The position numbers and the translations under genes are program-made. This document shows, in pieces, positions 37,745 to 62,842 of a stretch of 64,000 bases of DNA; position 1 is the first letter of the stretch, and each line of letters opens with the position of its first letter. Under the pieces are notes generated by a model. That model worked only from the letters and a program-made list of their open reading frames with translations. It had not been told where the DNA came from and did no database searches. Origin of the DNA: an uncultured Chloroflexia bacterium (lineage in GTDB: Bacteria; Chloroflexota; Limnocylindria; Limnocylindrales; CSP1-4); the NCBI GenBank assembly GCA_963782715.1, contig CAWAKU010000022.1, positions 22,439-86,438 on the forward strand, read 5' to 3'.

Positions 37745-37967
37745 CGACCCGCGCTCGCAGCTAATCGGGAGGTGAGTGGCTCGCGCCATGATGGCGCGCA
37801 TGCCAGCACACGAAACCTCCGTTGACACCTCCCGGAGCGAGTCCGTATCGTTCGCGCCGCCTCACCCGATGTGGCCCGCGCCACGGACCGACCGATGGGC
37901 ACCGGTCGCCGTCGGCCCAGGGCGCCCAACCGTCGGGTCGGCAAGCCATGGAGCGCTCGGCGACGGT

Positions 37968-40900
37968 ATGACCGGGTACCCGATCCAGCCCGCGAAGGTC
38001 CAGGGTCCGCTCCTGCGCGACGAGACCCTGGCCCGGCACCGGCTCCTCGACTGGCTTGCGGCCAAGATCCACCATCGGGTCATCCTCGTCCTGGCGGACG
38101 CGGGCTACGGCAAGACGACGCTCCTGGCCGACTTCTCGCGGCGCACCCGAGTCCGCACGGTCTGGTATCGCCTCGATGACGACGACCGCGACTGGATCTC
38201 GTTCCTGAGCCACCTCGTCGCCGCGGGCCGGGTGCACGATCCCGCGTTCGCCCCGAACACGGCCGCGCTGCTCAGCGACCTCGCCATGGGCGGTCCGACC
38301 CGCGAGGCGGCGACGGAGGTGTTCCTCCGCGAGCTGCCCGCGATCGCCGAGCGTGGGGCGATGCTCATCCTTGACGACTTCCACCTCGTCGACGAATCGC
38401 CGGATGTCCGTGCCATCGTCCGGGAACTCGTCGCGGCCGCACCTGAGCGCCTGTCGATCGTGTTCGCGAGCCGACGCAGTCCGTCCATTCCCCTGGCGCG
38501 CCTGCGCTCGGCCGGCGAGGTCGCCGAACTCGGGACCGACGACCTGCGCTTTGACGCGGCCGAGACGGCGAGCCTGTTCGCCGAGACCTACGGCCGCGCG
38601 CTCGAACCCGACGTCCTCGCCGATGTCGCAGCCAAGACCGAGGGATGGGCCGCATCGCTCCAACTCGTCCAGGCTGCCCTGCGCGACCGAACCCCCGCCC
38701 AGATCCGTCAGTTCGTCCGGGGCCTCAGCGGGGCCGACCAGGAGCTCTATGACTACCTCGCGGAAGAGGTCGTCGGTGACCTCCCGGAGGAACTGCAGCA
38801 GTTCCTGATGCGGACATCGATCCTGCAGGTGGTGACCGCGGACCTCGCGCAGGTCGTGACGGACCTCGACCGCGCCGGCGTCGCCGCGATGACCAGCGCA
38901 GCCGAACGGCTGACGCTGCTCGGTCGTCCGTCGCGGTCCGGCAAGGGGTCGCAGCGCTACCACCCCCTGGTGCGCCAGTTCCTCGAAGCACGTCTCCTGA
39001 CCGCGACCGGCGCAGACCGGGTGGCTGAACTCCATCGCCGAGCCGCCGTCGCAGCGGCTGTCGATTGGCGAATGGCCGCCTACCACTACCGGCAGGCGGG
39101 CGACGCAGCATCCGTGGCGTCGACGATCGCCACGGCCATCCCAGAGATCATGGGCGGCGGCCAACACGCCGCAGCGATCGAAGAGATCGACCGGCTTCCG
39201 GTCGGCGTGCGGCTGCCTGTCCTGGACCTCGTTGTTTCACGAGTCAAGTTCCAACGGCGCGACTATTCGTCCGCAATTGGACTCTCGCGCGCAGTTCTTG
39301 AGACCGTTGAGCCCGGTACTCAGGAAAGTGATTTCGCGCTCCTCAACTTGATCACGCTCTACATCGAATCTGGCAAATCGGTCGAAGCTGTCGAGATGAC
39401 CCGCCGACTCGACTTGACAACGTCCGATGACCAGCTTCGCCAGATTGCCATCGCGGCCGCATTGATGATTGAGGCAACCGGCTCCGGCAGCCTCGATGAA
39501 GTGGTTCGCCATCTAGCGTCTATGGCGGAGCGTCAACGAGGGATTCACTCTCACTACTACGGCGTAACAATGCTCAATCTGGCCCTCATTGCCGTCCATC
39601 AGGACCGGCCTGATATCGGTGTTGAGCACGCCCGTGAGGCTATTCAGTCACTGGAGGGCACGTCATCGCGGATCGAGCTTTCGGCGGCCTTCATGGCACT
39701 CGCCCACCCTTTAGCCCTTCTTGGAAAGGCATCTGAAGCTCAACAGGCCATCGATCGTGCCGTAAGCCTGGACGAGGCGGAGGCGCTCAGTGAAGAGGGC
39801 GACCTCGCAGATTCCTACCTCGATCCAGGTTCGGCATGGCCAATCATCGCCTCGCTCGACGACAGCTTGGAATCCGCGGCGAAGGAGAGATACGCGATCC
39901 AGTCAGCCGTCTTCCACGCGCGACGAGCTCAATTTGACGAGGCACAGGAACTCCTGCCGAGGTCACCGGCGCGCGAAGGCGTCCTCATGGGGACGGCGAC
40001 CATCATGCGGGTGGCAATCGCATACGTCGCCGTCGCTTCGGGCTCGGCCAGGGGAGCCGAACATGCTCGCGAGGCTAGGCGAGCCGCAAGAGCCCAGGGG
40101 GCGATCCGTTGGCGACGAACCGCGGAACTGCTCGAGGCGTGTGCCGAATCTCCCCAAGCCCTTGGCAAGTTGATCCCCGCGGTCGCGCGCACGTCGCCCT
40201 GGAACTTGACATACATCTCAGATCTCATTGCCGCGCGGCTAGATGACCTGGACGAATCGACATTTCCCCTGCTCACGCGGGTCGCGAATATGCATCCGGG
40301 CCGTTGGCGGTTCGCTCTTAGGGACTGTGTTTCCAATGCGCGCCCCGGGGAAGGCCTGGTGGCGGCTCGCCTTCTCGAGGACATCGGCGAGACATCCGAT
40401 ATCGGCAGGCTCCGTGCATACGCCCGCGGCCAGAAGCGTCTGCCCGGCGCCTCGAGACTTGGTCGGTCGCTGGCTCGCCGGTTGGCGGACAGAGCCACCA
40501 TTGAAGACCAGGGCCGAGTCATGGTTGTCGTGGGGGATCGGCAGGTTCCTGGGTCGACGATTCGTCGAAAGGTCCTTGCCCTAATGTGCTTTCTTCTCAC
40601 GCGACCAGCAATGGCTAGCACGCGCGACCAGGTCCTCGACGCTTTGTGGCCAGAACTTGATCCGCTGGACGCTTTGAACTCGCTCAACCAGACCGTCTAC
40701 TTCCTCAGGCGAGTCCTCGAGGAACCCTACGTGGACGACTTGTCGCCGGGCTATGTCCACCACGATTCCGACCTAATCTGGCTAGACGAAGACCTGGTTA
40801 CGAGTCGAAGCAATGAATGCCGGCTCCTCATCAAGGGCCTCCCGATCAATCCACGTCCGGACGACGTCGACGCCTTGGTCGATCGATACCAAGGACGCTT

Positions 40901-41203
40901 CGCTCTCGATTTCGAATACGAGGAATGGGCTGCGCCGTATCGCGATTGGCTCCATGCGTCTTATCTCGAGGTGGTCGAACGAGCGGTGACGACGATCTCG
41001 AGACCGGACACTTCGAACGTGGGATCCGATTGGCGAGGCGGGTCCTGGATGTCGACCCAGGAGCGGAGCATGTCGAGGTCTCACTCCTGCGGCTTTACCG
41101 CGCGAGCGGGGCACATGCAGCGGCCGCCGAGCAATACGCACACTACGCGAGCGCCATGCGCGAGCAGCTCGGGGTCGAACCCCCTCCACTCGAGAGCCTG
41201 TAG
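37968..41203 (+). CDS. MalT-like STAND ATPase with a TPR-like region and C-terminal wHTH/BTAD (SARP) domains; apparent frameshift near 40995
   Basis: Walker A ADAGYGKTT, Walker B LILDDFH, TEGWAASL, YDYLAEEV, RYHPL; RDQVLDALWP...LNQTVYFLRR; BTAD end in ORF 40817..41203. Confidence 0.88.
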
Positions 41204-41222
41204 GGATAGGTAAGGTGCCGTA

Positions 41223-41252
41223 TTGACCGGTTTAGTCCGGCCTCCCTATAGT
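41223..41252 (+). promoter_or_regulatory. Sigma70-like promoter
   Basis: TTGACC, 18 nt spacer, TATAGT, directly upstream of the riboswitch-like leader. Confidence 0.6.
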
Positions 41253-41280
41253 CCCGGAACTTCGTAGTACCCCAGTACTA

Positions 41281-41368
41281 GGAAGCAACGTTAAGACGCT
41301 CGGACGCGCAGAAGCTCCACCTGAAATGGGCACTTAGGGTGGAGCCGAGCGACTAGTGCAACCGACCG
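41281..41368 (+). ncRNA. c-di-GMP-II-like riboswitch aptamer
   Basis: Stem GCTCCACC/GGTGGAGC closes a loop containing TGGGCACTT; pseudoknot partner AGTGC is followed by AACCGACC. These are the class-II conserved blocks. An HD-GYP gene lies downstream. Confidence 0.7.
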
Positions 41369-41390
41369 ACTAACTAGTCTGGTCGGTTTT
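41360..41390 (+). terminator. Intrinsic terminator overlapping the aptamer 3' end
   Basis: AACCGACC-GACT-AACT-AGTC-T-GGTCGGTT followed by TT. Confidence 0.7.
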
Positions 41391-41429
41391 CGTGTTTGAG
41401 ACACGGGAGCCGCGAAATGGAGGACGAGC

Positions 41430-41557
41430 GTGAAGCCTGAAGCACGATCACAAGGGCTGGTAGGCCATGAAAGGCCGATCATGCGCATCCTGGTCACGAT
41501 CAGTCGAGTGTGGCGATGCTTGTGCTGGCCGGTGGAGCTTCGCTTCGGGGTTTCTAG
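41430..41557 (+). CDS. Putative signalling micropeptide precursor (...MRILVTIS/SSVAMLVLAGGASLRGF*); requires correcting one indel near 41503
   Basis: GGAGGA RBS then GTG 41430, with in-frame ATG 41481. The -1 frame from 41504 reads SSVAMLVLAGGASLRGF-TAG. The start is uncertain. Confidence 0.55.
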
Positions 41558-41631
41558 TACGTTGGGCATCTCTCGTTCGGACGAGCCAGCAGGTAGAGTC
41601 TGCGCGAGGGTGGTTCGACGAACGGCCGCTC

Positions 41632-43100
41632 ATGTCAGGTCGCTCAAGGCATACCTATTGGAGTCGTGATTTTCAGTGCTAGTCGCCCTGGTGGCTGCGA
41701 CTCTTCTGGTTTCCCGCCGACTTATCCCGCGATAGCCATCACTCTGGCCACCGGGACTAGCGATCGACAGCGATGTCGCGATCGCTGGCCGGCGTCGGGT
41801 TCTGGATCGTCCTCACTCTGATCTGTTGGGCTCTTCCCGTTCGATCTCCCACGGGGGACTCAGCAGGCTGTGGCCAATGCGCCGATGCTCGCGGCGATCT
41901 TTCTAGGTGGCCCAGCGGTAGGTGGATGGGTTGCAGCTCTGGGAACCACCGAGACCCGCGAGCTCCGGGGCCGAATTCCCTGGTACGGAACACTGGCGAA
42001 CCACGCAGGGATTGCGTTGCCGGCCATTGCATCCGGCTGGTTTACGAATTCCTCCCCGGAAAGGGCGCCGGGCCGTTCGCGGATTTCATCAGGGCGATGC
42101 TCGCGGCCGGGGTGTTCTACGGCCTCAACGTTTGGTTCGCGGTCTCACTACTCGCCCTCCGCACTAGGCAGCCGATCCGCACGGTGCTACTGACGGAGTC
42201 GAGGGAGAACGTTCTTCAAGAATCTCGCGCTCGGTCCCCTTGGTTGGCTTATGGCCCTCGTGTACACGCGTCCTTTGGTGGGCGACGCTGCTGTTCGCAC
42301 TTCCGCTGTACACAACCGGACTGCTTCGCAGCGACTGATCGAGATGCGCGACATGTTCACCCAAACGATTGGTGCCCTTGCAGAAGCAGTCGACAAGCGC
42401 GATCCATATACCGCTCGACATAGCCAGAACGTGAAGATTGATCGCAGTCGATATCGGTCGAGTAATGCGCGTCAGCGATCGCGAGCTGGAGGCGCTGGAG
42501 TGGGGTGGGCTGCTCCACGACGTCGGCAAGATTGGCGTGCCAGACAACGTGCTACTCAAGTCGGATCGACTGAACCGCGAGGAGCGGATGATCATGAACT
42601 CGCATCCGGTCCTGGGTGCCCAAATCATCGCGCCGGTGACTAGATTGGCAGCGGAACTGCCGATCATCCGTCACCACCACGAGTGGTACAACGGGTCGGG
42701 ATATCCGGATCGACTCATCGGCGACGAGATACCGAAGCTTGCGAGAATCCTCCATGTCGCAGACGCATTCGAGGCAATGACCGCGGCCCGCCCGTACCGC
42801 ATGACTCCACTCACGGCCGAGCAGGCATTGGCCGAGCTGCGCAAGTTCGCAGGTGTCCAGTTCGATCCGGTCGTCGTCGATGCTTTCGTCAGGACAACGC
42901 ACGTCGAGGGTGTGGCGGATGCTGGCCGATCTGCAGGGCCACGTCAGATTCCGCTAATCGCACAGGCCGCCGATCGAATGACGACCGCGCCTCACTCGGA
43001 GGCTAAGGCGACGCCGTGCTTCAGCCGAACGCGTCTGACGGACTCTGCGTCGCCCGGCTGCACATTGCGTCGCTCGGACGACACCATGATGCAGCGGTGA
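41632..43100 (+). CDS. HD-GYP phosphodiesterase with an N-terminal multi-TM sensor; several frameshifts
   Basis: DPYTARHS, LLHDVGKIG, HHEWYNGSGYP, VADAFEAMT.RPYR, QFDP; hydrophobic fragments in ORFs 41773 and 41870. Confidence 0.85.
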
Positions 43101-43120
43101 ACAGCGCTCTACCCGCCCCC

Positions 43121-45191
43121 GTGTTGATCGGCGGCGTCGCCCTCGGACTCATCCTGGGCCTGCTCGTCGGCGGCTCGATCTCCAACCTGGCGTCGGTGCG
43201 CCTCCATCGCATCGGGATCCTCGTCGGCGCCGTGCTGCTCCGGTTCGGGACGGAGATCCTCCTCAATCAGGGCGTCCCGATCGCGGACACCCTGCGGGTT
43301 CCCCTCCTCGCCGCCGCCTACGGCCTTCTGCTCGTCGCGCTGTGGGCGAACCGCGGCTATCCGGGCATGAGCCTCGCGTTCATCGGTGTGCTCGCGAACG
43401 GTGTCGTCATCCTCGTCAACGGCGGGTACATGCCGATCTACCTGCCGAGCCTCGAGCTCGCCGGCCTGACCCCCGCAGACGTGACCTCGAACCTCCACGT
43501 GATCCTGGGACCGGCCCTGGACGCCAACTTCCTTCTTCACCTCGGCCCATTCGCCGACGTCATCCCCATCCCCTTCCCGCTCGTGCAGAACGTGGCCTCG
43601 ATCGGCGATGCGTTCCTGACCTTCGGTCTCGCCTTCTTCCTGTTCGCGGCCGTCGTCCGTGTCCCGCAGGAACTGGACGAGGAGCAGCTCGCGGTGATCC
43701 GCCAGCGGCTGGCCATCCTGTCCGCTTCGGGCCGTCCATTGCGCGCCGGCGACCCGGGCGCCGACACCGGGCTGTCGTCCGCCCTGACCCGCACCGTGGC
43801 CCTTGAGCGGCCCCTCGTCATGGGCAGCGCCGGTCCCGGGCTGGCATCCCCGTCCCTCAGCAGCTTCGAGGCGGACCCGGCGATCCCGGGCACGATCACG
43901 GTCTCGATCCCACGTCCAGTCGAGACGATCGAGCGGGTTCGTCACCACCCATACGTCCGGCTCGCGCTCAACGGCTCCTTCTCGGCCCTGTGGGCCGGCC
44001 AGCTCATCTCATTGTTCGGTGACCGACTCAACCAGCTCGCCCTGGTCGCCGTTGTGGCGATCTCGACCGGTTCGGCGCTGGCGACAGGGCTCGTGTTCTT
44101 CGCCGCCACGCTCCCGAACCTGCTGCTGAGCCCGATCGCGGGAACGTTCGTGGATCGCTGGGACCGTAAAGAGGTCATGGTCGTCAGTGACGTCCTGCGA
44201 GCCGCGCTGGTCCTGCTGTTGCCAGTCGCCGCGGTCACCAACATCATCCTGGTCTATCCGCTGATCTTCCTCGTGACGACGATCTCGGTGTTCTTCCGGC
44301 CGGCACGCGTGGCGATCCTTCCGCGGATCGTCCCGGAAGAGGACCTGCTCAGCGCCAACTCGGCCTTGTGGGTCGGCGAGACGATCGCGGATGTCATCGG
44401 TTATCCCCTTGCCGGCGTCTTCGTCGCGGTCCTCGGGAGCGCCGTGCCGCTCGCATTCTGGGTCGACAGCGCGACGTACCTCGCGTCGGCGGCGCTGATC
44501 GGGACGATCGTCGTCAGTTCAGTGGCAACGCGGCCAGGCGAAACGGGCGACGGCAGATCCATCGACGTCGACCGGCGACCCTCCATCCGGACCGAAATGG
44601 CGATCGGCTGGCAGTTCCTCCGCCATGAGACCGTTCTCCTTGCGAATACGCTGCAGGGCGCGGTCGGACAGTTCGCCCTTGGGATTGCCATCGCTCTCAC
44701 ACCGAGCTTCGCTCAGATGACATTCAGCCAGTCCGGTCTTGGGTGGCAGGCCGCGTACGGCTTTCTTGAGACTGCTCTTGGACTCGGCAACCTCATCGGC
44801 GGATTCACGATTGGTCTCATTGGAGACGCGGTTTGCGAAGGGTCGGATGGTCATCGCAGGCTACGCTCTGTGGGGTCTCCTGATCTTCTTGTTCGCTTTG
44901 TCGGGCAACTTGGCCGTCGCTATTGGACTGTCATTCGGACAGGGTGTTGCCGGCATGATCTTCATCATCCCGAGCCAAACGCTCTTCCAGGAACGAACGC
45001 CATCGGAGCTGATGGGAAGGGTCGTTGGCATCCGGTTCGCATTGGTCTTCGGGTCGATGACGATCGCGATGCTCCTCGGGTCCGTGCTGGGGCAGCTCGT
45101 CGGGCCGGCTCCGGTCATGGCTGTCTTCGGGCTGGTGACCGTCGGAGCCGGCCTGGCCGGGCTTCTCGTGCCGGCCGTCCGCGACGCGTGA
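43121..45191 (+). CDS. DUF5317-MFS (DHA3/EntS-like) fusion; apparent frameshift near 44830
   Basis: N-terminal NGVVILVNGGYMP...FADVIP...SIGD is in frame with LWAGQLISLFGD...GTFVDRWDRK. Confidence 0.85.
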
Positions 45192-51640: not shown

Positions 51641-52846
51641 CAGAGCTGGATGCCTCCGCCGAGGGCTCCCCACACGTCGACGACGTCCTTGCCACCGATC
51701 TCGAGCGACCGGTACGGCTTATGCGGGGCACCGAGGACCAGGATGTCGCTCTCCTGGAGGACGCGTTCGAGCGCCACGAGGCGATCGTCGATGACGTACG
51801 GGTCGGTCGCGAGCACGTGCGCACCGGACCACGCCAGGAGCTTGCGGAGCTTGTAACTGAGTGAGGCGCCGAGGATCGTCCGACTCGGCCTTGAAGGCCA
51901 TCCCGAGGATACCGACGGTCTTGCCGGTCAGCCCACCGTAGCGCCGCTCGAGCGCCGAGACGATGTAGGCCGGCAGGCCCTCGTTGACCTGCATGGCCGC
52001 CTGGCCGAGCGGGAAGTGATCGGCGGTGAAGGCCGACAGCTGCATGGTGTCCTTGAACAGGCACGGGCCGGCGGCGAAGCCGGGACCGGGCAGGTCGGCA
52101 GCTCGTGGGTAGTCCTCGCGGATCGCCCTCAGGATGTTCGTGTAGTCCACTCCGGCCGAGTCGGCGATCATGAAGAACTGGTTGGCGACCGCGAATTTCA
52201 TGTAGCGCCACGTATTGGTGAAGAGCTTCGTCAACTCCGCTTCCTTGGTCGTCGTCCGGATGGTCTTGGAGGCCAGCGTCCCGAACAGGGAGGCGGCACG
52301 CTCGGCCGCGACATCCGTATCGGCACCGATGATCTGCGGCAGCGAGGACAGCTCCTCGAGGGCATGACCCTCGGCGATGCGCTCCGGGCAGAACGCCACG
52401 TCGACGACGCAGCCGCGGTCGGCGAGGTGCTGGGCGACGTAGCCCGTGGTGCCCGGGTAGACGGTGCTCCGGAGTGCGACCAGCGCCCCCTCGCGCAGAT
52501 GGGGTCCGATCTGGTCGACCGCCTTCTCGAAGATCGTCATCGATGGGCCGAGGAACTCGTCCACGGGCGTCCCGATGACCACGACGAGCTGCATCGTCCG
52601 TTCGATCATCGAGCCGTCCGTGCCGAACGACAGGCGACCTGTGGGCAAGAGCTCGCGCAGGAGCTCATCGGCACCCGTCTCCATGAACGGCATGTCGCCC
52701 TGGGCGATCCGATCGAGGGTCGCCTGGTTGGTGTCATAGATACCCACCCGCAGGCCGGCCTTGGCAAAGGCAAGGCTCAGGGGCAGACCGACATGACCGC
52801 CGCCGCCAAGCACGACGACGTCGAGATCCGGGGAAACCTTACTCAC
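51640..52846 (-). CDS. Nucleotide-sugar dehydrogenase (WecC/Ugd family); frameshift near 51865
   Basis: GGGGHVGLP, RSTVYPGTT, CPERI, AGPCLFKD, GMAFKAESDD. Confidence 0.9.
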
Positions 52847-53077
52847 AGCCCGACTTTAGCAGGGAGGTGCGCAGGCGCACCTAGGTCCATCGTCTGGTTC
52901 ACGCTGGTACTCCGCCCGAGGACCATGATCCGTCGCCCGGACGCGGGATGGTGGCCTATATGCCGAGCGCCGTTGGTACTCGTGGGATTTATTTATTATG
53001 AGAATTACACAGTTATTTATACGAAGAGTGTAATGAGGAGTAAGGAGAGGCAAGGGCATCGATGACCTCATCGCAGC

Positions 53078-53532
53078 ATGGCGGAAGATCGGGTCGCCGA
53101 CGGCGCACCTAGCCCTCGTCGGCGGCACGCCCATCGAACGCGACCCGGAGCTGCTCGCGATCGACCGGATCAGCGTCCATCCGTGGGCGTCGGACATCGG
53201 GCGTTCCACCGCGCCGCTGACATCTTCGTCCTGCCGTCACACGCGGAAGGCATGTCGAATGCCCTGCTCGAGGCCATGGCTGTCGGCCTACCACCGATCG
53301 CGACCCGTGTGGGCGCCGCGGAATCGATGATCGAAGATGGCGTGAGCGGGATCCTGGTCGATGTCGGCGATCGAGATGCCATGGAAGATTTCTTCAACGA
53401 CTTATCGATGATGTCGGGTTGCGACGCCGATTGGGTTCCGCAGCCGCTGCGTCTGTCCGAGCGCGATACGGCATATCGACCGTCGTGGACACGATCGAAC
53501 GTTCATATCGCGAGATCGTCGGCCCGCGATGA
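53078..53532 (+). pseudogene. C-terminal fragment of a GT4 glycosyltransferase
   Basis: ADIFVLPSHAEGMSNALLEAMAVGLP; no recognisable N-terminus; frameshifted. Confidence 0.6.
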
Positions 53533-54933
53533 TCGGCTCCACGGCGGGCACGTGGTTGAACTATGGAACGACCGTCGCCTTCCAGATCCTGTTCGCACGC
53601 GCGTTGGGACCGGCGCTCAGGCTTCGGCATTCTTCATCGCCTTGGTCACCGCGATCTCGCTGGGCAGCATCCTTTCAGGCACCGTGCACGTGATCGCCTT
53701 GCCGCGCCTTACAACGACCGATGGCGGGCTGCACCGAGGGCCACTCAAACTGATGGCAGGCGCCGGGATCATTGCCGCCATCCTCGCCGTAGTCACGATC
53801 GTCTTCGCCGATCGCCTCACGTTCGTCATCAGTGGCGGCCAGGATGAGACGGCGAACCTGATAAGAGCGGCTGGCGCATTCTTGGTAGCTCGCGTTGTCG
53901 CCTCGCTCGTCGCGACAGTGGCCCTCGCTCGTGACCATCGGTTCGCACCGGCGGCTGCTCCGTCCGTCCCGTCGATCGTAGCGGCTGCCTATCTCATCGC
54001 CTCACCTGCGACCGCGAGCGCGAGTTCTACCCTGGGTTTCCTAGCGTTGGGCTCCGTCGCTGAAATCGCCATCCTTGCGTTGTTGGTGGCCGGACGAATT
54101 CGAACCGTCCCTGGGGGTCTTGGCGAGGTTCGGGTCCTCACGCTCGCCACGATGGCGCAACTCGGCCTGCTCGTTGCGCTCGCTGCCGCTCCAGCGCATC
54201 ATGTCGAACGTGGATTCGGTACCTGGTGCTGCGACAGCCCAATACGGCTTGCAAGGGCTACAGGTCGGGCAGCAGTTGCTCGTCGGCGGGCTCGCCGTGG
54301 CAGCATTCGCCGACTGGAGTCGATTGACGAGTCGCATGGAGATCGGGGCGAAGCTTGCGCGGACCACCGCGGGCGCGGGCTTGCTCCTCGTCTTCGCTGG
54401 TGCGATGGGGGCGGTCGCCGCGCCGACGATCGTTCGAGTTCTGTTTCAGCGGGGCAGTTTCAGCGCGAGCGACACACAGGCTGTGGTAACCGATCATTCG
54501 ACTCGGTGTGGTCGGATTTCTGGCTGCGGGCACGGCGCTGATACTCGCGCAGGGCCTGGTCGCCGGCCGACACAACTGGTTGGCGATTCGCGTGAGTGCC
54601 TTTCGGTTCGTCGTTACCGCGACACTGACGATCGTGGGCGGCGTAGTGGCGGGCGCAAATGGGGTTGCGGTGGCCTTCTCGCTGGGCGCTGTCGCCACCC
54701 TTGCCCTCATCTGGCCAGTGACATTCCGACAGGTCACCGTGCCTGAAGATGGACACCGACTTCTTCGACGCGCCGCGGCCGGCGGAGCGGGGATAGCGCT
54801 CGCCACCATGGTCGTGACTCTGCTGCTGATGCCGACGTGGCCTGATCTAGTGCAAGCGACCGTCGTCCTCGGTGCGTCAGCCCTGATAGTCATCGCCCTT
54901 CGCTTGCCTGTACGCGCGTGGCGAACTGTATGA
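53529..54933 (+). CDS. MurJ/MviN-like flippase; frameshifted
   Basis: Hydrophobic fragments; PTIVRVLFQRGSFSASDT is a MurJ-like signature. Confidence 0.7.
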
Positions 54934-54970
54934 CAGCGTTGACACGACGCATCGCCGGGGACGCGTACTG

Positions 54971-56849
54971 ATGTGCGGCATCGTCGCGCTGGTAGGCAAC
55001 GGTGATGGCTTCACCGAGCCCATCCACACGATGACGACCACCATCGTCCACCGCGGGCCCGACGAGGACGGGTTTGCGATCCTGCCAGAGGACGGTGTCG
55101 CCCTGGGGATGCGCCGCCTCAGCGTCCTGGACATCGAGGGCGGCACGCAGCCGATGTGGGACGAGGCGCGCCGCCACGTCGTCGTCTACAACGGCGAAAT
55201 CTACAACTTCAAGGACATTCGCGACGACCTGGTCGCGCGGGGCCACCGTTTCACCACACACTCCGACACGGAGGTGATCGTCCACGGCTACGAAGAATGG
55301 GGAGAGGCGGTACTCGGCCGCTTGAATGGCATGTTCGCCATCGCGCTGTGGGACGAGCGCGAGGACGTCCTCGGATTGCGCGCGATCGCGTCGGCGTGAA
55401 GCCCTTGTACGATTTCGTCGACGGCCGCCGCCTGGTGTTTGCCTCCGAGATCAAAGCCATCCTCGCGCATCCCGATATCGTTCGCGACGTTGATCCGAAG
55501 GGACTCCTCAACTACCTGGCGTACGGACACGCCGTCGCTCCAGACACGATGTACCGCGGTATTCGGAAACTGTTGCCGGGACATTCGATGCGTGTGCGCG
55601 GGAAGGACATTGCCGTCCGCCAGTGGTGGGACGTTATGCCCGCTGCGCAGACGATGCTTTCCGAAGAAGAATGCGCGCGCGAAGTGCGGCGGTTGCTCGA
55701 GGACAGCGTTCGCCTGCGGCTCATCTCCGACGTGCCTCTCGGCGCCTTCCTGAGCGGCGGGCTCGACTCGAGCGCGATCGGCTATTACATGACAAAGGCG
55801 GCCACCCGCACGAAGGCCTTTTCGATCGGCTTCGAGGATCCCAGGTTCGATGAGTCGGACTACGCGCGGTTGGTGGCGCGGCACCTCGGCGTGGACCACC
55901 ACCTGGAAGTCTTCTCGGAGGATCGGGTCAAGGCGCTGGTGCCAAAGATCCCGGAACTACTCGACGAACCGATGGGCGACCAGTCGATCTTTCCAACGTA
56001 CCTGTTGAGCACCGTCGCCCGAGAAGGTGTCACGGTCGCCCTGGCGGCGATGGCAGTGACGAACTACTGATGGGCTACAAGACCTACCAGGCGCTCAAGC
56101 TGATCTGGCAGGTCGACCGACTCCCCCGCTCCGTCCGCTCCATCCTGGCTCGAACAGCTCGCCGCGAGCCGATCCCCGGCATCACGCCTCGCGCCTGGCG
56201 CCTTTTCGCGGGACTGGACGACATTCCCAGTCATCGGCTCCTGCGGCGGCTAGGCTCATTCCATGGCGAGGCACGTTCCGTGCTTGCCCGGCCCGTTCGC
56301 CGCCAACTGCCGCCATCGGCGTTCAGTGACGTCGATGAGTCGTTCGGGCTGGATCGCCTTTCGGTATCAGGGTCGGCAGAGGAAACGATCGCCGCATACG
56401 TCCGCGGCTACCTTCAGGACGACATCCTGGTCAAGGTGGACCGCGCGAGCATGGCCACGTCGCTAGAAGTGCGTGCCCCCTTCCTAGACCCCGATCTGAT
56501 CGACTTCCTCTCCACTGTTCCCGCCTCGCTCAAACTTCGAGGTTGGACGCGCAAGCATCTGCTTCGAGAGACGATGCGAGGGCGGTTGCCGGACCGGGTC
56601 ATCGACCGCCCCAAGCGGGGCTTCGGCGTACCGCTCAACGACTGGCTGCGCGGATCACTTGCGCCATTGGTCAAGGAACGACTGGCGCCGGGCCGGCTCG
56701 AAGAGGGCGGGTACTTCGATCCGCACGAGGTCTCAAGACTCGTCGAGACGCAGATGGCGGGCAGTCGTGACGAGGGACAGAAGATCTGGCTGCTCCTGCA
56801 ATTCGAGCTGTGGCGCGACTGCTGGCAGATCCCGGGTTTCGAACAGTGA
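54971..56849 (+). CDS. asnB: Asparagine synthase (glutamine-hydrolysing)-type amidotransferase; frameshifted
   Basis: MCGI, HRGPD, NGEIYN, SDTEV, LSGGLDSS, KVDRASMATSLEVRAPFLD. Confidence 0.9.
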
Positions 56850-57991
56850 CGGGCCGGTCTCCTCGATCCCTGAGGATCCTGCATATCGTGACTCGTCACC
56901 AGCACGGTGGGTGCGAGAAGAATGTCCTGCACACGATCGATTGGGAACGACGGGCCGGCCACGAGGTGCACATCGCCGTCGGGGTCCAAAGCGACAGAAG
57001 CGACCTTCCAACCGACCTCACCGTCCACGTCGTCCCGCACTTCGTGCGCGAGGTTCGCCCCGATCTCGACCTGCTGGCACTTCGCCAGCTTCGCCACCTC
57101 ATCCAGGCGGGCCGCTATGACATCGTCCACACTCATCAATCGAAGGCGGGATCCCTCGGTCGACTGGCATCCAAAGGCGGCAGGCGGCAGCTCGTCCACA
57201 CGGTGCATATGTCGTCGTTCGGCCAGGCGTACGGGGCGATCCCATCGCAGCTCTATCTCCTGGCGGAGCGGGATTGCGCCCGGACCACGGATCGGGATTT
57301 AGCATCCACCGTCGGCGTAGGACTTCGAGAGGACTACCTGGCGGCGGGGGTTGGGCGCCCGACCAGTACACGGTGACATCCGCTCGCCGATCAAGATCCG
57401 ATTTGTTCCTCTCGGTCCGCGACATCGGCCTGGGCGACGTCCACAACCTTCGCGATTCGTTCCGTCTGCCGGTCGGGCACGCCCGTCCTCGCCGCGATCG
57501 GGCGCTCGAGAAGCGGAAGCGCGTCGACGCTGATCCAGGAGTTGAGTCCGGTCTGAAATGGCGAGGTCGTCCTGGCCGTCGCCGGCGACGGCCCGTGAAC
57601 GAGCTGCCCTGGAACGTCTCGCGGCGACCCTCGGAGTGGCGGACGCCGTTCGATGGCTCGGCTATCTGGATGACCCATCGCGGCTGCTCGCTGCGTCCGA
57701 CCAATTCGTCCATGCCGGACGAGCGGAGGGCGTCTCGCAGGTCGTCGTACAGGCACTGGCGTCCGGCCGTCCCGTCGTCGCCACGCTATCAGTCGGGCTT
57801 CAGGAGGTGGACGGGGCTCAGGTTCGCATCGTCCCGTGGTCCGGCGAAGGGCTGTGGGAGGCTCTCTGCTTCGACGCTCGTCGCGCCACCGACGCCTCCC
57901 GCGCCGTCTGCCTTCGACGCCTGGTCGCCGGCAGCCGTCGACGAGCGATTGGCGCGTTCGCATGCAGATCTCGCCGGGCCGGTCCGGATGA
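56846..57991 (+). CDS. GT4 glycosyltransferase; frameshifted
   Basis: ILHIVTR...GGCEKN, VHTHQSKAG, EGVSQVVVQALASGRPVV. Confidence 0.75.
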
Positions 57992-58949
57992 GTCCGAGCC
58001 GGCGCTCCGCGCCGACGGCCGTCGATGCGGCAATCGGTTCGGCTCGACTACTGGCGAGGAAGGTAACTCGCCGCGTCAAACGGACGGGCGGCAGCGGCTC
58101 CGCCCGCTATTGCTACTCGGTGTGGCTCCGCCACCTCGTGAAGGCGGCCGAGGCCGGGTTACCGACGGAACTTCGATCGATCGTGGAGCTGGGACCGGGG
58201 GACTCGATCGGCGTCGGGCTTGCCTCGCTGCTGACAGGCGCGGAGGAGTACGTCGCGCTCGATCAGGTGGCGTTCGCCCGAAGCCAGTCGAACATCGCGG
58301 TCTTCGACGGCCTCGTGGAGCTGCTCCACCAACGAAGCCCCATCCCGGACAACCTCGAGTTCCCGGAAATCCGGCCACGCCTCGCCGACTACAGCTTTCC
58401 GGCGGAGGTCCTCTCCGACACACGGCTGACGCCCGCGCTCGACCTGTTCCGGGTCGCTCGACTGCGCCGCGCGATAACGGGAAACTGACGGCTGCATCCG
58501 ATACGTCGCACCTTGGGACGACTCGTCGGTCCTGCCAGCACGCGAGTGCTGATCTGATCATCTCGCAGGCAGTCTTGGAACACGTTGCTGATGTCAATGC
58601 GACCTATTTCGCGATGGCCCGCTGGCTACGACCGGGCGGATATCTCTCCCATCAGATTGACTTCCGATCTCATCACACGTCGACCAGTTGGAACGGACAC
58701 TGGACCTACTCGGAACGCCAGTGGCGACTAGTGGCAGGTCGCCCACGGATGATCAATCGGCAACCGTTATCGGCGCATCTTGCTGCCATGGAGCGAACCG
58801 GATTCCGCGTTCTCTCATTGGACCTGGAAGGCGACACGCCAGGCATCGGCCGCAAACAGCTGCACCGTGATTGGCGATGGCTTGGCGATGAGGATCTTCA
58901 GACCTGCAGCGCTTTCATCCAGGCAGGACCAGGGACCGAGCAGCCGTGA
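57988..58949 (+). CDS. SAM-dependent methyltransferase; frameshifted
   Basis: VELGPGDS, SQAVLEHV, LRPGG. Confidence 0.75.
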
Positions 58950-59908
58950 GACAAATCGGGCGTTCGCGGAATGAAGTCGCGGTCGTTGGAGCTTCGAGTG
59001 CGACTTCGGCGGGTGGGCCATGCCCGATGTGCAACAACGTTTCGCGCGAACTCGTATCGACCGTGGCGTTTTCAACGATCTGGCGAACGCTCGAGTCCGT
59101 TTATGCAGTCCGTTTCGCGCCAGATATCGTCGAACGCCACACCCCGGATGGTCGGGCGCAGCTCTGGCAATGCATAACCTGCGGACTCCAGTACTTCTCC
59201 CCCGCGGTGGCAGGTGACAGCGACTTCTGGGGAACCTTGATGCGCACAGAGGAGCACTTCTACCACGAGGACAAGCCCGAGTTTCAAGTCGTATTGGATC
59301 TGATCCGTCCAGGGATGCGAGTCCTTGATGTCGGATGCGGTTTGGGAACTTTCGTCGCCGCGGCATCCCGCGTCGGTGCTGTCTCAATCGGCCTGGAGCA
59401 GAACGAGACGGCGGCCACTGATGCTCGACGACGAGGCATCGATGTCCGAACCGAGTCAGTGCAACGGTTCGCTCTCGGGCATGCCGGTGGATTCGACGTC
59501 GTCACGATGTTCCAGGTCGTCGAACATGTGCAACCGATCATTCCCTTCGTCTCGGCGGCATTTGCGTGTGTTAAGCCCGGAGGACTGCTCGTGATGAGCG
59601 TTCCGTATCTTGGCCGCCTCCGTCCAGCGAGCTTCGAAGTCCTAGATCACCCGCCCCATCACATCTCCAGATGGGATGCGACACCATTCCATTGGCTGGC
59701 ATCGCGGCTCGGGGCGAGGGTGACCTTGGCATTCGACCGATTGAGCGAGCGAGACGCTCTCGATATTCGAATGTGTGGAGTCTTTGCCGCTGAACGCGGA
59801 GTAAGACTGCGCGTTCGAAACGCCTTGGTGAAGGTGGGACTGGCCTCACCGTCTTTTCGCCCCTCGGCTCGCCAATCCGCAACCGAATGCGACAACGAGG
59901 TTGGCTAG
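58946..59908 (+). CDS. Class I SAM-dependent methyltransferase with Zn-ribbon
   Basis: CPMC...CITC, VLDVGCGLG, FQVVEHV, KPGG. Confidence 0.85.
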   Translation: MRQIGRSRNEVAVVGASSATSAGGPCPMCNNVSRELVSTVAFSTIWRTLESVYAVRFAPDIVERHTPDGRAQLWQCITCGLQYFSPAVAGDSDFWGTLMRTEEHFYHEDKPEFQVVLDLIRPGMRVLDVGCGLGTFVAAASRVGAVSIGLEQNETAATDARRRGIDVRTESVQRFALGHAGGFDVVTMFQVVEHVQPIIPFVSAAFACVKPGGLLVMSVPYLGRLRPASFEVLDHPPHHISRWDATPFHWLASRLGARVTLAFDRLSERDALDIRMCGVFAAERGVRLRVRNALVKVGLASPSFRPSARQSATECDNEVG

Positions 59909-59994
59909 ATGGGTACGGCCACACGCTTATCGCGACGATTCAGAAACCAATTACCGCAGGTGAGGCGGCCGACGGTTAGCAGAGGCACTCGCGT

Positions 59995-60945
59995 CTAGTT
60001 GTCGTTCTCCTCGACCTTGTTGACGAGGACCGACAGCGGCGTCTGGCCATCGAGCCCGGCGTGGGGACGGCGTCGATTGTAGGCATCGACCCAGCCGGGC
60101 AGCGTGGCCAGGCGCTCCTCGTTCGACCGGAAGAGGCGGGCGTAGGCCCACTCGCGCTGGATCGTCCCGATGAACCGCTCGGCCTTGCCGTTGGTCTGCG
60201 GCCGTCGCGGCCGGGTCCGAACGTGACGGATGCCGAGGTCGGCGAAGCAGCGCGGCGACGGCTTCGAGTGGGTGTAGGTCCAGGCGTTGTCGGTCATCAC
60301 CCGCTCGACCCGGACACCCTGGTCGGCGAAGAAGGCGACGGCCTCCGCGATGAAGCTGACGGTGCTCGCCGCCAGTTCGTCGGGCCGGACCGCGACGTAG
60401 GCGACCCGGCTGGCATCGTCGATCGCGACGTGGAGGTAGTCGTAGCCGACCCGCGTCCTTGCGCGCCTCGTCACCGAGGATCCGGTGACCGCCGCCGGGT
60501 GGTACCCGCCCGAGGCGCTTCACGTCGACGTGGATCAGCTCACCCGGGCACTCGCGGACATAGCGGACCGGGAAGCCCGGTCAGCCGATCGGCGTGCGCG
60601 AGGCGGCTCACACCGTGCCGACGCAGGACGCCGTACACGGTCGAGCGGGAGTGGCCGAGGAGCGGACCCAGGCGATGCGGACCGACGCGCAGGCGACGGC
60701 GCGCGACCAGGATCCGGCGGACCTCGCGCTCGGGCAGTGCCCGTGGCCGATGGTGCGGTCGGGCCGAGCGGTCCTCGAGCCCGGCCGCGCCTTCGGTCCG
60801 ATAGCGGCGCAGCCACTTGTACGCGGTCGCCCGGCTGACCCCGAGCATCTCGGCCGCGGTTGCCGGCCGGCCAGCCCTCGATCAGGACCCGATCGACCAG
60901 GAGCCGTCGGCCGAACGGCGTCAGCTTGGCCGTACGATGGAGCAT
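59995..60945 (-). CDS. IS481 transposase; frameshifted
   Basis: HRTAKLTPFGR, AIDDASR, MTDN, PQTNGKAERF, YNRRRPH. Confidence 0.88.
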
Positions 60946-61032
60946 GAGAGCCCTCCGTCGGAATGGAGCTTCGACAACCCCATACCGAGCACGAGGGCTC
61001 TCAACTTGTCAACAACGTGAGTGGGAACGACA
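60000..61032 (-). mobile_element. IS481-family insertion sequence
   Basis: TGT...ACA ends; imperfect IRs TGTCGTTC...TTGTTGAC; flanks TCTAGT and TCTATT (6-bp target duplication, one mismatch). Confidence 0.88.
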
Positions 61033-61103
61033 TCTATTGCCGCGGAGAAGGGTTGATGCCGTACGACCAAGCGTAGGCTCCGCGACGGACGCCGGCAGCT
61101 CGT

Positions 61104-61930
61104 CTATTCCAAAGTGACGGGAGCTTGGTGGCGGAACATGTAGACGTCGTTCGCGCCCTCACCGAGAGCGTCCTGCAAACGCTCCAGCACGAAGCCCTGC
61201 GGCCGAAGGCGGGCAATAACCTCACCGGGGCCAACCGGCTCGTACGGCAGCCCGCCGAGCCAATCCTCGATGTCGCGCCACCAGTCCATTCCGCGCTCCC
61301 GGCGATAGTGCCGGATGTACCAAGGTCACCGTGGAGGGCGGCCTGGCCACGAGCTCCGCTGCATACCGCCCCCGGAGTGCCTTCTGGACGATTGGACGCG
61401 AGCGGATATATCGGCGCTTCGAGCGCAAGGTCTTGGGGCTCCGATATGTCTTCGTGTACAACGCGATCCAAAGCCGACCGTCTGGCCGTACAAGGCGCGC
61501 AGCGTTGTCAATCGCGTGCCAGACGTCCCCCGTATGGTGCAGCACCCCCCACGAGACGACCACATCGAACGTGCCGAGGTCGTTGACGAGTTCATCATCG
61601 AGGATTGACCCCTTGCGGACGGTCCAACTGCCGGGCCTCCCTGCCTCGCCCCACAGTCGATGGGTCGCGGCGACCGACGCCTCGTCGACGTCGATGCTGG
61701 TCACATCAGCCCCCGACTCGAACGACACCAGTGATGTCAGACCCTGACCGGATCCGTATGTCGATGAGTCGGTAACCCGTGAGGTCCCTGCCCAGCCAGT
61801 CGCCGACGTACGCCGCCATGTTACGAACCGCCTGGGGCGGGATCGCATCGAGGTACTTCTGCCAGTTCTCGCCAAACGAGAACCTGGTCGGCTCTCGATC
61901 AGCCACTGGTTGGCTCCGTCGACGCGGCAC
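61104..61930 (-). CDS. UbiG-like class I methyltransferase; frameshifted
   Basis: RFSFGENW, SWGVLHHTG, DWLGGLPYE. Confidence 0.8.
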
Positions 61931-61963
61931 GTGGCCATCCGATGTCGGGCCCGCGAGGCGTTC

Positions 61964-62800
61964 TCACGGATCCCTCCACGAAGGGGTACCACAACAAGGG
62001 GTAATCGAACCACAAATCATGACCGATGGCGGCAACGCGTCCGTGTTCGACCACGTCATTAGGACGCAATGCGCCGAACGACTATGGTCAAGGTCGAGGC
62101 GCACCATCGACGAGTGGTGCGGGCGCCTTTGGCTGATGCGAATGATGGGGAGTAGGCCGAAACCCGAATAGAAAAGAGGACCGCCGTCAACACTTTCAAT
62201 GTCGAACCCGTTCTCTCGAAAGGTTCTCGTCCAACGGAAGGAGCTGTAATAGTAGACTTCGGCCAGCGCGCTCGAATACTCGCCGTGTGGCTCGCCGAGT
62301 GTCGCTCTCATTGCGAAACCCATTGCGCCGCCCTTCTCCTCGCAACGCGCTGCCGCGTCAGGTCCCCGGCTCGCGACTGTCGATGAGGGGAACCGATCGC
62401 GCAGCCAGACGGCATATCGCTCGACGTGAGTCACGCCTCTCCAGACCGGCGATGGCAGTACATGTACGGCAACGCCATTCGGCTTCAGGACCCGTTTGAT
62501 TTCAGCAAGGATCCCCGAGAGGTCTTCGATGTGTTCGAGAACGTTCGAAGAGAAGACAACGTCAAATGTGTCATCGCCGAACGGAATATTGGCTCCGTCA
62601 TATTGCTGCACCGGGAAGACGCAGGCGTCACCGGGTGCGATGTCTATCGAGGCAACATCACAGCCCCAGGACCTGAGCAGACTCGCCTGGTACCCGTTGC
62701 CGCCGCCCAACTCGAGTACGCGCTGACCAGACCTGAACCATCGCCTGACGGCATCGAGTTCAAGTCTCCGGATCAAACCAAATTGCGTGTCGTCGTACAC
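61964..62800 (-). CDS. Class I SAM-dependent methyltransferase; 3' end uncertain
   Basis: VLELGGGNG, FSSNVLEH, RVLKPNG. Confidence 0.8.
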   Translation of the reverse strand: MYDDTQFGLIRRLELDAVRRWFRSGQRVLELGGGNGYQASLLRSWGCDVASIDIAPGDACVFPVQQYDGANIPFGDDTFDVVFSSNVLEHIEDLSGILAEIKRVLKPNGVAVHVLPSPVWRGVTHVERYAVWLRDRFPSSTVASRGPDAAARCEEKGGAMGFAMRATLGEPHGEYSSALAEVYYYSSFRWTRTFRENGFDIESVDGGPLFYSGFGLLPIIRISQRRPHHSSMVRLDLDHSRSAHCVLMTWSNTDALPPSVMICGSITPCCGTPSWRDP

Positions 62801-62842
62801 CGCTCCTAGTCCCTAGACTTCGGTACGTAGTGGCTCAGATGG

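Follow-up and report, generated by a model that had tools for sequence, protein, structure and literature searches.

A 64,000-nucleotide stretch of DNA (hereafter the window) from an uncultivated bacterium of the Candidatus (Ca.) Limnocylindria, a class of the Chloroflexota, was analysed (contig CAWAKU010000022.1 of assembly GCA_963782715.1, positions 22,439 to 86,438 of the forward strand). The plus strand of the window carries, at 37776-45191, a cassette that consists in order of a large regulator gene, a predicted class II riboswitch for cyclic di-GMP (c-di-GMP), two short open reading frames (sORF1 and sORF2), an HD-GYP phosphodiesterase gene and a gene for a fusion of DUF5317 to a transporter of the MFS type (Table 1). 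The genome that bears the cassette (G000) comprises 3.76 Mb in 22 contigs and is 95% complete, and the window has a G+C content (GC) of ~70%. An earlier reading of this DNA (the original prediction) had proposed a peptide-signalling system made of five co-oriented elements, and all five were found on the plus strand within these limits.

Table 1. Coordinates of the cassette features in the window
Feature	Position	Strand	Evidence and remarks
AAA (STAND-like) / helical middle / winged helix-turn-helix (wHTH) / BTAD regulator	37776..41203	+	Pfam; one frame break at ~40988-40994
Promoter-like TTGACC-N18-TATAGT	41223..41252	+	Scan, 10/12 matches; conserved in a 14-sequence alignment
5' stem-loop UAGUAC-N4-GUACUA at the leader start	41262..41283	+	Fold of -8.6 kcal/mol, z -3.5
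c-di-GMP-II riboswitch aptamer (RF01786)	41293..41376	+	67 bits vs gathering score 53.5, E 1.3e-13
Intrinsic terminator, 5' arm overlapping the aptamer 3' end (predicted expression platform)	41360..41398	+	Terminator scan and fold
sORF1	41430..41463	+	Shine-Dalgarno GGAGGA at 41419-41424, GTG start; window copy 34 nucleotides, one base out of frame
sORF2	41467..41557	+	29 codons in relatives; window copy 91 nucleotides, read in three frames
HD-GYP phosphodiesterase	41632..43100	+	HD_5 E 9e-37; catalytic domain 42438-43100 intact; 10-12 breaks at 41655-42437
DUF5317 (~43196-43642) fused to MFS_3/MFS_1 transporter (~44030-45191)	43121..45191	+	Pfam, tblastn; break at ~44829-44842

The gene order lexA-like, dnaB, zinc-ribbon protein, regulator, cassette, PCMT-like and PIG-L-like was kept in 13/13 loci of the genus with long flanks, and the cassette is therefore part of the core chromosome. 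An intact cassette was found in 22 loci of relatives, and the cassette occurs in two families of the class, f1 and f3. Of the related loci, 54 extend 2.5 kb or more upstream of DUF5317; the riboswitch/terminator pattern was matched in 51 of these, and a variant of it was recognized by eye in two more (L077 and L134), which brings the total to 53/54. This co-location of the cassette parts far exceeds chance; it had been set beforehand as a test of the proposal, and it holds across the class. The window shows a GC dip that spans the C-terminal half of the regulator, the leader and the N-terminal half of HD-GYP, and relatives have the same dip. A horizontal-island origin of the cassette was considered and ruled out by this shared dip together with the synteny of the 13 loci.

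The leader behind the regulator gene matched RF01786 over the full length of the model (positions 1-84 of 84), and this was the sole Rfam match above threshold within the 64-kb window. RF01786 scored over its cut-off in 39 of the 61 genomes of the genus, with the window copy among the genus's best scores, and a c-di-GMP-II riboswitch was located directly upstream of the HD-GYP gene in every genus locus inspected. The terminator stem, formed by 41360-41371 and 41376-41388 ahead of a U-tract, was conserved across relatives. Because the terminator and the 3' strand of the aptamer are mutually exclusive, the leader is predicted to be an ON switch in which bound c-di-GMP would block terminator formation. 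As far as is known, the characterized c-di-GMP-II riboswitches of Clostridia are ON switches, and riboswitch control of c-di-GMP turnover genes has long been noted. The leader resembles known c-di-GMP-II riboswitches in its full-length match and in having an intrinsic terminator that competes with the aptamer 3' strand. In contrast to known examples, it lies in an uncultivated class of the Chloroflexota, two micro-ORFs come first behind it, a phosphodiesterase for the ligand is included in the operon, and ligand binding is predicted here. The leader had been described earlier as riboswitch-like; it is indeed a riboswitch, but its predicted c-di-GMP sensing had gone unrecognized. As a c-di-GMP riboswitch, it would make c-di-GMP both the input of the operon and the substrate of the operon's enzyme.

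Several smaller observations were made on the leader. Its 5' stem was kept in L037, where an A-to-G change retains a G-U pair in the alignment, as judged by eye. The CUAGUAC heptamer at the sORF2 stop (41552-41562) is the same as the left arm of the 5' hairpin (41264-41281), and a conserved TAGAGT lies ~45 nucleotides ahead of the HD-GYP start. Elsewhere in the genome, two weaker c-di-GMP-II-like matches were below the cut-off (G000:C8:252718-252804, 41.4 bits, L147; G000:C9:125307-125394, 29.5 bits, L148); the gene behind one of them encodes a protein of 289 amino acids (aa) without a Pfam family, and that behind the other a 1113-aa lectin/NosD/beta-helix protein.

When the leaders of 13 relatives were aligned with the window, two short ORFs were recognized between the terminator and the HD-GYP start. 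The first, sORF1, was present in 92 of 96 leaders; it usually starts with GTG behind a strong AAGGAGGA site and encodes a hydrophilic peptide, mostly of 9-10 aa, with the typical form M-x-P-E-[SM]-x(1-2)-K-G-W-stop. In 84 of the 92 leaders the peptide ends in K-x-aromatic. In addition, the sORF1 unit (8-9 aa) occurs in two to three tandem copies in L029, L037, L079 and L116, which belong to the window's genus, and in L198 from another genus. One such repeat reads …E-S-x-K-G-W and then L-P-E-S-x-K-G-W; in L198, three …N-R-P-W units were read in a stretch that includes two N, which makes this reading less sure.

The plan of the second, sORF2, is an N-terminus with basic residues, then one hydrophobic helix, then the near-invariant tail A-G-G-A-S-L-[RK]-G-F, and a tail of the form AGGA-x-x-[KR]-[GA]-[FWY]-stop was found in 72 of the 77 unique leaders. 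The original prediction had claimed a tiny hydrophobic peptide ORF and had named a conserved sORF in homologous loci as a test of it. The peptide is real and conserved in these 72 leaders, but the 13-aa ORF first seen (41516-41557) is merely the 3' part of the 29-codon sORF2, whose tail is intact in the window. In 48 unique 29-codon DNA sequences, the entropy at codon positions 1/2/3 was 0.70/0.38/1.39 over the whole ORF and 0.33/0.14/1.54 over the last 12 codons, and the ratio of nonsynonymous to synonymous polymorphism (pN/pS) was 0.34 in frame vs 1.28 and 1.76 in the other frames. A21, G22, G23, A24 and G28 were invariant, with all four alanine codons and all four glycine codons in use. Variation was restricted to the N-terminal half, in which two or three basic residues and the hydrophobic run were retained. 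This codon signature indicates that sORF2 is a translated peptide under clear purifying selection and not an RNA structure. Pfam and NCBIfam scans of sORF2 returned no family. Within G000, the GGAS[LV][KR]G[FW]-stop motif was found at the cassette locus only, and peptides encoded on contig C16 of this genome (see below) have another tail.

The gene behind the sORFs encodes an HD-GYP protein with a membrane N-terminus, as had been claimed: the N-terminal ~235 aa form a multi-helix membrane domain, and the HD metal-binding and GYP (HHExxxGSGYP) motifs of HD_5 (PF13487) are both present in the window. LLHDVGK and HHHEWYNGSGYP are invariant in 16 HD-GYP orthologues and were likewise found in the window; intact orthologues have 449-492 aa. 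HD-GYP domains have an established c-di-GMP-degrading activity. A match of the N-terminal domain to MASE9 (PF20972), seen in one of two intact orthologues, was below the cut-off (17.9 bits vs 24.3, E 0.003).

The last gene of the cassette encodes a genuine DUF5317-MFS fusion, as expected from the earlier reading, since intact frames of 634-799 aa were found in 22 relatives. Its DUF5317 part (PF17248) scored 80.6 bits in Pfam vs a cut-off of 25, and tblastn with five intact fusions showed that the window fusion spans two frames. When 8000 candidates were scored, 795 database proteins (351-2000 aa) were found at E<=0.001; the best 120 of these 795 were mostly DUF5317+MFS_3 fusions, and four had PF17248 alone. 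The DUF5317 family comprised 2043 cluster representatives at E<=0.001. Two 358-aa database proteins (P0243 and P0268) have HD_5 and then DUF5317 in one frame, which reflects either true HD-GYP::DUF5317 fusions or gene calls that read through on short contigs. An AlphaFold2 model of DUF5317 made from 36 sequences (predicted local distance difference test, pLDDT, 93.8) has five transmembrane helices, the fourth and fifth of which are separated by a small beta region that holds the near-invariant motifs N-G-G-x-M-P, D-x-I-P-x-P and S-x-G-D and two near-invariant Asp. A Foldseek search of this model against the PDB gave nothing at E<=0.001, and a wide structural search gave generic helix bundles (best Z 7.7) with no protease listed. 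The peptide had been proposed to be cut by DUF5317; because the fold searches matched no protease, this role is without structural support.

PF17248 was detected in 79 of 251 Chloroflexota genomes. All 12 genomes of the window's family and all 14 of a second Limnocylindria family had it, chiefly in frames of 620-750 aa. The Thermus and Thermotoga genomes used as controls also gave matches to the family. We sampled 20 loci from other genera of both families, 16 of which include upstream sequence at the orthologous locus, and in these 16 the order regulator C-terminus, riboswitch, sORF1, sORF2, HD-GYP and fusion recurs. The c-di-GMP-II riboswitch was at or above the gathering score in nine of the 16 and at E<0.01 in four more; it was not found in the other three, all from one genus. 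In these other genera both peptides vary in sequence but retain the overall plan: sORF1 ends …V-I-K-G-W or …R-V-W / …R-P-W, and sORF2 ends …A-G-G-A-S-F-K-G-W (32 aa) or …G-G-G-A-S-Y-R-P-F.

Related peptides were also found in other layouts. In a locus of the second family (L185; G177:C3:221476-227883, reverse strand), HD-GYP is followed by MFS::DUF5317 in reverse domain order and then by a c-di-GMP-I-GGC-type riboswitch (61.1 bits), a 36-aa peptide of the same plan and a terminator-like hairpin; further downstream lies a small ORF resembling cyclic-nucleotide (cNMP)-binding proteins. Across the class, RF03167 reached E<=0.001 in 52 of 121 genomes and exceeded its cut-off in 39; this tally and that of PF17248 each include one unpublished genome (G360 and G278, respectively), on which none of the other results depends. 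A hydrophobic sORF of 28-36 aa was located within ~10-40 nucleotides in 15 of the 32 examined stretches downstream of RF03167. In the six loci with flanks (L212, L218, L220, L225, L226 and L228), an EAL or HD-GYP gene and, close by, DUF5317 lie upstream of the riboswitch-peptide units whose peptides end in …G-A-G-[MV]-[KR]-W-x. In G000 itself, outside the window, a stand-alone DUF5317 gene on contig C16 is followed by two tandem riboswitch-peptide-terminator units (G000:C16:163351-167608; L145:4840-9109). The c-di-GMP-I-GGC riboswitches of the two units score 63.8 and 63.2 bits; both peptides are hydrophobic, have 29 aa and end in …L-G-A-G-[MV]-K-W-[HY], and both terminators are strong hairpins. 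Behind the units follows a GAF-GGDEF-EAL gene, and on the upstream side there is a GGDEF-EAL gene in divergent orientation. The two peptide groups matched profile to profile over 27 columns (probability 93.8%, E 1.7e-7). Because these riboswitch-peptide units possess separate terminators, their peptides are independent gene products.

Among 24 DUF5317 loci outside the class, 13 had an HD-GYP gene no more than 1.5 kb away from DUF5317. Riboswitch scans of 20 of the 24 gave no match, and all 24 together (81 kb) held a single peptide-like sORF. The pairing of DUF5317 with HD-GYP is therefore older and wider, and the riboswitch and the peptides are a Limnocylindria addition. The single out-of-class sORF, in a locus of another Chloroflexota family (L163; G161:C130), has 28 aa ending …A-A-G-A-E-G-K-W-V and lies ~1.1 kb downstream of the DUF5317 gene on the same strand, with no riboswitch detected.

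These data bear on whether the sORFs could act in cis as leader peptides, their translation (for example through ribosome pausing at the C-terminus or the TAG stop) tuning HD-GYP and the peptides themselves being functionless. Such a role would agree with the position of both sORFs between the riboswitch terminator and HD-GYP, with the very strong Shine-Dalgarno site and GTG start of sORF1, and with conservation that peaks at the sORF C-termini. In addition, the stop is TAG in 46 of 48 sORF2 and in 51 of 57 unique sORF1 sequences despite a ~70% GC genome, and the sORF2 stop stands in a conserved TAGTAC, with TAC-G conserved after the stop codon. However, the related peptides come from monocistronic genes that have a riboswitch and a terminator of their own, and where sORF1 is repeated, the entire unit is copied. 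sORF2 moreover retains a basic N-terminus and a hydrophobic helix while the sequence of both varies, which would be needless for a 29-aa arrest peptide. We regard a purely cis-acting role as quite improbable, and we infer that sORF2 is a stand-alone membrane micropeptide and more than a leader peptide.

The regulator that precedes the leader has an N-terminal P-loop NTPase domain (AAA_22/AAA_16 in Pfam). Its Trans_reg_C match was below threshold and the wHTH is weak; BTAD scored 30.2 bits in the window, in another frame than the rest of the regulator, and E 1.5e-10 in the intact relative L034. Intact relatives of 1143-1147 aa align to the window in two frames. Of the STAND-TPR-BTAD architecture claimed originally, the AAA (STAND-like) and BTAD parts were borne out, but TPR support amounts to one sub-threshold TPR_2 match, in an intact relative. 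Large regulators of the SARP/AfsR type combine BTAD, wHTH, NTPase and TPR. The same kinds of domain are present here (weak wHTH, BTAD, P-loop NTPase and a helical repeat region), but their order is inverted, with the NTPase N-terminal and wHTH-BTAD C-terminal, and the TPR support is sub-threshold. The promoter-like site begins 20 nucleotides past the regulator stop codon, and the promoter scan found one site vs 0.3 expected. A block of ~20 nucleotides, GGATAGGTAAGGTGCCGTA (41203-41228), overlaps the regulator stop codon, abuts the -35 hexamer and is near-invariant in 14 sequences. The neighbouring wHTH-BTAD regulator may bind at this block.

We propose that the cassette is a conserved c-di-GMP-gated feedback operon of the Ca. 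Limnocylindria in which a micropeptide works with DUF5317 and the phosphodiesterase, a reading that we hold to be probable, with some reserve. A sigma-70-like promoter behind the regulator gene would drive the riboswitch leader, and c-di-GMP binding would open the terminator to give read-through transcripts for sORF1, sORF2, HD-GYP and DUF5317::MFS. The HD-GYP protein so induced would then lower c-di-GMP; this negative feedback is suggested because the HD-GYP activity is established. sORF2 would insert into the membrane as a stand-alone micropeptide and act with DUF5317 on, or together with, the phosphodiesterase. Transcription would depend on two inputs if, as is possible, the promoter is driven by the neighbouring regulator. 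It is likely that peptide, DUF5317 and phosphodiesterase are functionally linked, because related peptides recur beside DUF5317 and a phosphodiesterase gene in other layouts. A co-fold of the HD-GYP N-terminal domain, DUF5317 and the 29-aa peptide scored 0.48 vs 0.44 for a control in which chain 1 was replaced, and thus speaks neither for nor against an interaction.

Several points weigh against this proposal. The link between peptide and DUF5317 is drawn entirely from gene neighbourhood, the ON logic from folding and overlap, and c-di-GMP as the predicted ligand of the window aptamer from the covariance-model match. To our knowledge, the ligand of the c-di-GMP-I-GGC variant is not established. 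Profile-profile scores run too high for peptides of such hydrophobic composition, and no RNA run was listed among the public runs that contain the stretch. Furthermore, DUF5317 and HD-GYP are paired outside the class without peptide or riboswitch, so the peptide would be dispensable for the basic function of the pair.

The original prediction had read the locus as a quorum-sensing-like circuit tied to c-di-GMP. In terms of the cassette as now defined, sORF2 (perhaps also sORF1) would be a pheromone precursor, cut by DUF5317, its short C-terminal peptide exported by the MFS transporter and sensed by the HD-GYP membrane domain and/or the regulator. Known peptide pheromone systems include RRNPP systems (Phr, SHP/Rgg), agr systems and peptidase-containing transporters. 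The cassette shares with them a short hydrophobic precursor with a conserved C-terminus, a fusion of a membrane protein to an exporter, and a large regulator with a possible repeat sensor domain nearby. sORF2 looks like a signal or anchor sequence ahead of an invariant tail, which A19-x-A21 and G22-G23 immediately precede; the tandem copies of sORF1, two to three in some genomes, are typical of multi-copy peptide precursors; and both sORFs end in basic-small-aromatic, which in one genus becomes R-P-aromatic in both. DUF5317 is fused to MFS in both orders, and the two near-invariant Asp and the S-x-G-D motif of its beta region could also fit a peptide-handling role. However, DUF5317 lacks a recognized protease fold, the regulator is of the AAA/wHTH/BTAD kind with a sub-threshold TPR_2 match, and the output enzyme is an HD-GYP phosphodiesterase, which sets the cassette apart from these systems. 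No AgrB, AgrC histidine kinase or AgrA domain was found in Pfam scans of all cassette proteins, and no C39 peptidase, Opp-type importer or RRNPP receptor was identified in the cassette, so that the analogies to agr-type and RRNPP loci were not upheld. In addition, paralogous peptide loci have DUF5317 without MFS; export of the peptide by the MFS transporter, as originally supposed, is therefore not general. The C16-type peptides leave three to four residues past the helix, more like an interface anchor than a released signal, and the DUF5317 and HD-GYP pair occurs without peptides outside the class. The small-residue variation at the end of sORF1 (G, A or P) is, moreover, not mirrored in sORF2 within the window's genus. 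On balance, we consider a pheromone circuit unlikely.

A bolder version, to which we give little credence, is that cells broadcast their c-di-GMP state: at high c-di-GMP the riboswitch would induce peptides that share a basic-small-aromatic C-terminus (the sORF1 units and the sORF2 tail), to be released by DUF5317::MFS and sensed by the HD-GYP membrane domain of neighbours. If this were true, a population would synchronize its c-di-GMP levels through a peptide quorum system that has a second messenger as both input and output, and DUF5317 would represent a novel type of membrane protein for handling peptides.

Every coding part of the window cassette is frame-broken as assembled, with ~15 breaks in all: one in the regulator, one in sORF1, at least two in sORF2, 10-12 in HD-GYP and one in the fusion. 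The HD-GYP breaks were counted by frameshift-aware alignment to four intact orthologues; a whole-window frame scan of GC at third codon positions (GC3) was too noisy for break counts. If the breaks were real, the regulator, sORFs, HD-GYP and DUF5317::MFS would be decaying pseudogenes in this genome. Decay would account for breaks in every coding part next to intact flanking lexA, dnaB, PCMT and PIG-L-like genes, and for the lower GC of the HD-GYP catalytic part (0.62 vs 0.67-0.71 in relatives) and of MFS (0.635 vs 0.66-0.725 in relatives). The breaks are strongly clustered, with ~13 in 1 kb (sORF1, sORF2 and HD-GYP), and their sites have no obvious homopolymer context; both observations weigh against assembly error. 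The public runs comprised seven DNA runs with shares of at most 0.12 of the stretch, their contigs being short and mostly from relatives. None of these contigs bridges the breaks in 41929-42369, 40988-40994 or 44829-44842, and in one, of low depth, five small indels relative to the window occur at 41619-41636.

Against decay, the corrected HD-GYP path has no in-frame stop and is identical to intact orthologues at 325-331 of 463-474 residues, an identity (~70%) as high as that among functional orthologues. The riboswitch ranks with the best-scoring ones of the genus, sORF2 has kept an intact tail, and the breaks cluster in 1 kb with none in the adjoining 660-bp catalytic domain. Unrelated genes of the window are split likewise; an asparagine-synthase-like gene (54971-56849), in another lower-GC part, is split over three frames. 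Few-contig metagenome-assembled genomes of relatives show similar breaks even in dnaB. Given the absence of in-frame stops, the ortholog-level identity, the high-scoring riboswitch and the similar splits elsewhere in the window and in relatives, the breaks are very probably assembly indels and not decay, and pseudogenization of the cassette appears unlikely.

The feedback operon that we favour can be compared with two kinds of known system. MgrB with PhoQ and AcrZ with AcrB are cases of small membrane proteins that modulate a sensor or an enzyme. The cassette resembles them in encoding a single-helix micropeptide with its putative membrane target and in its proposed feedback architecture; it differs in that a riboswitch ligand would be the inducer instead of a two-component system, and in that the interaction is suggested by neighbourhood. 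Another parallel comes from Clostridioides difficile, where small proteins of 58 aa that associate with the membrane form a family controlled by class I c-di-GMP riboswitches; their genes are repressed by c-di-GMP, and the family is reported to have no homologues outside C. difficile (PMC13724677). Both sets have small hydrophobic proteins right behind c-di-GMP riboswitches, often in several copies per genome, although the peptides studied here are shorter (28-36 aa) and the comparison is one of description, not of sequence (PMC13724677). The riboswitches here are of class II (predicted ON) and class I-GGC, whereas the C. difficile genes are c-di-GMP-repressed, and the peptides here are always beside DUF5317 and a phosphodiesterase gene (PMC13724677). 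As for CD1980.2, a small hydrophobic ORF that is conserved as a protein was found behind a c-di-GMP riboswitch.

In the literature searched, DUF5317 was named in no paper, nothing linked c-di-GMP riboswitches to such peptides in Chloroflexota, and the papers on c-di-GMP-I-GGC were not on peptides. The cassette thus offers DUF5317 a first testable context, as a putative membrane partner of c-di-GMP phosphodiesterases, and points to a new family of ~29-aa riboswitch-controlled micropeptides in an abundant, uncultivated soil lineage. A riboswitch that would sense the molecule its operon degrades, together with peptide products, would be a compact feedback circuit that can be rebuilt in vitro. It would also extend the 2026 discovery in C. 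difficile that c-di-GMP riboswitches govern small membrane proteins to a distant phylum and a different partner set (PMC13724677). Finally, "tandem" c-di-GMP riboswitches may conceal small genes between them.

Beyond the cassette, the region at 52000-64000 of the window has a lower GC (62-66%) and holds genes of the sugar/cell-envelope type, several of them split over frames, which suggests local assembly errors, real decay or both. It includes glycosyltransferase-like pieces at 56810-58949 and an integrase-core-like fragment at 59995-60474; these labels, like that of the asparagine-synthase-like gene, come from reading the translations.

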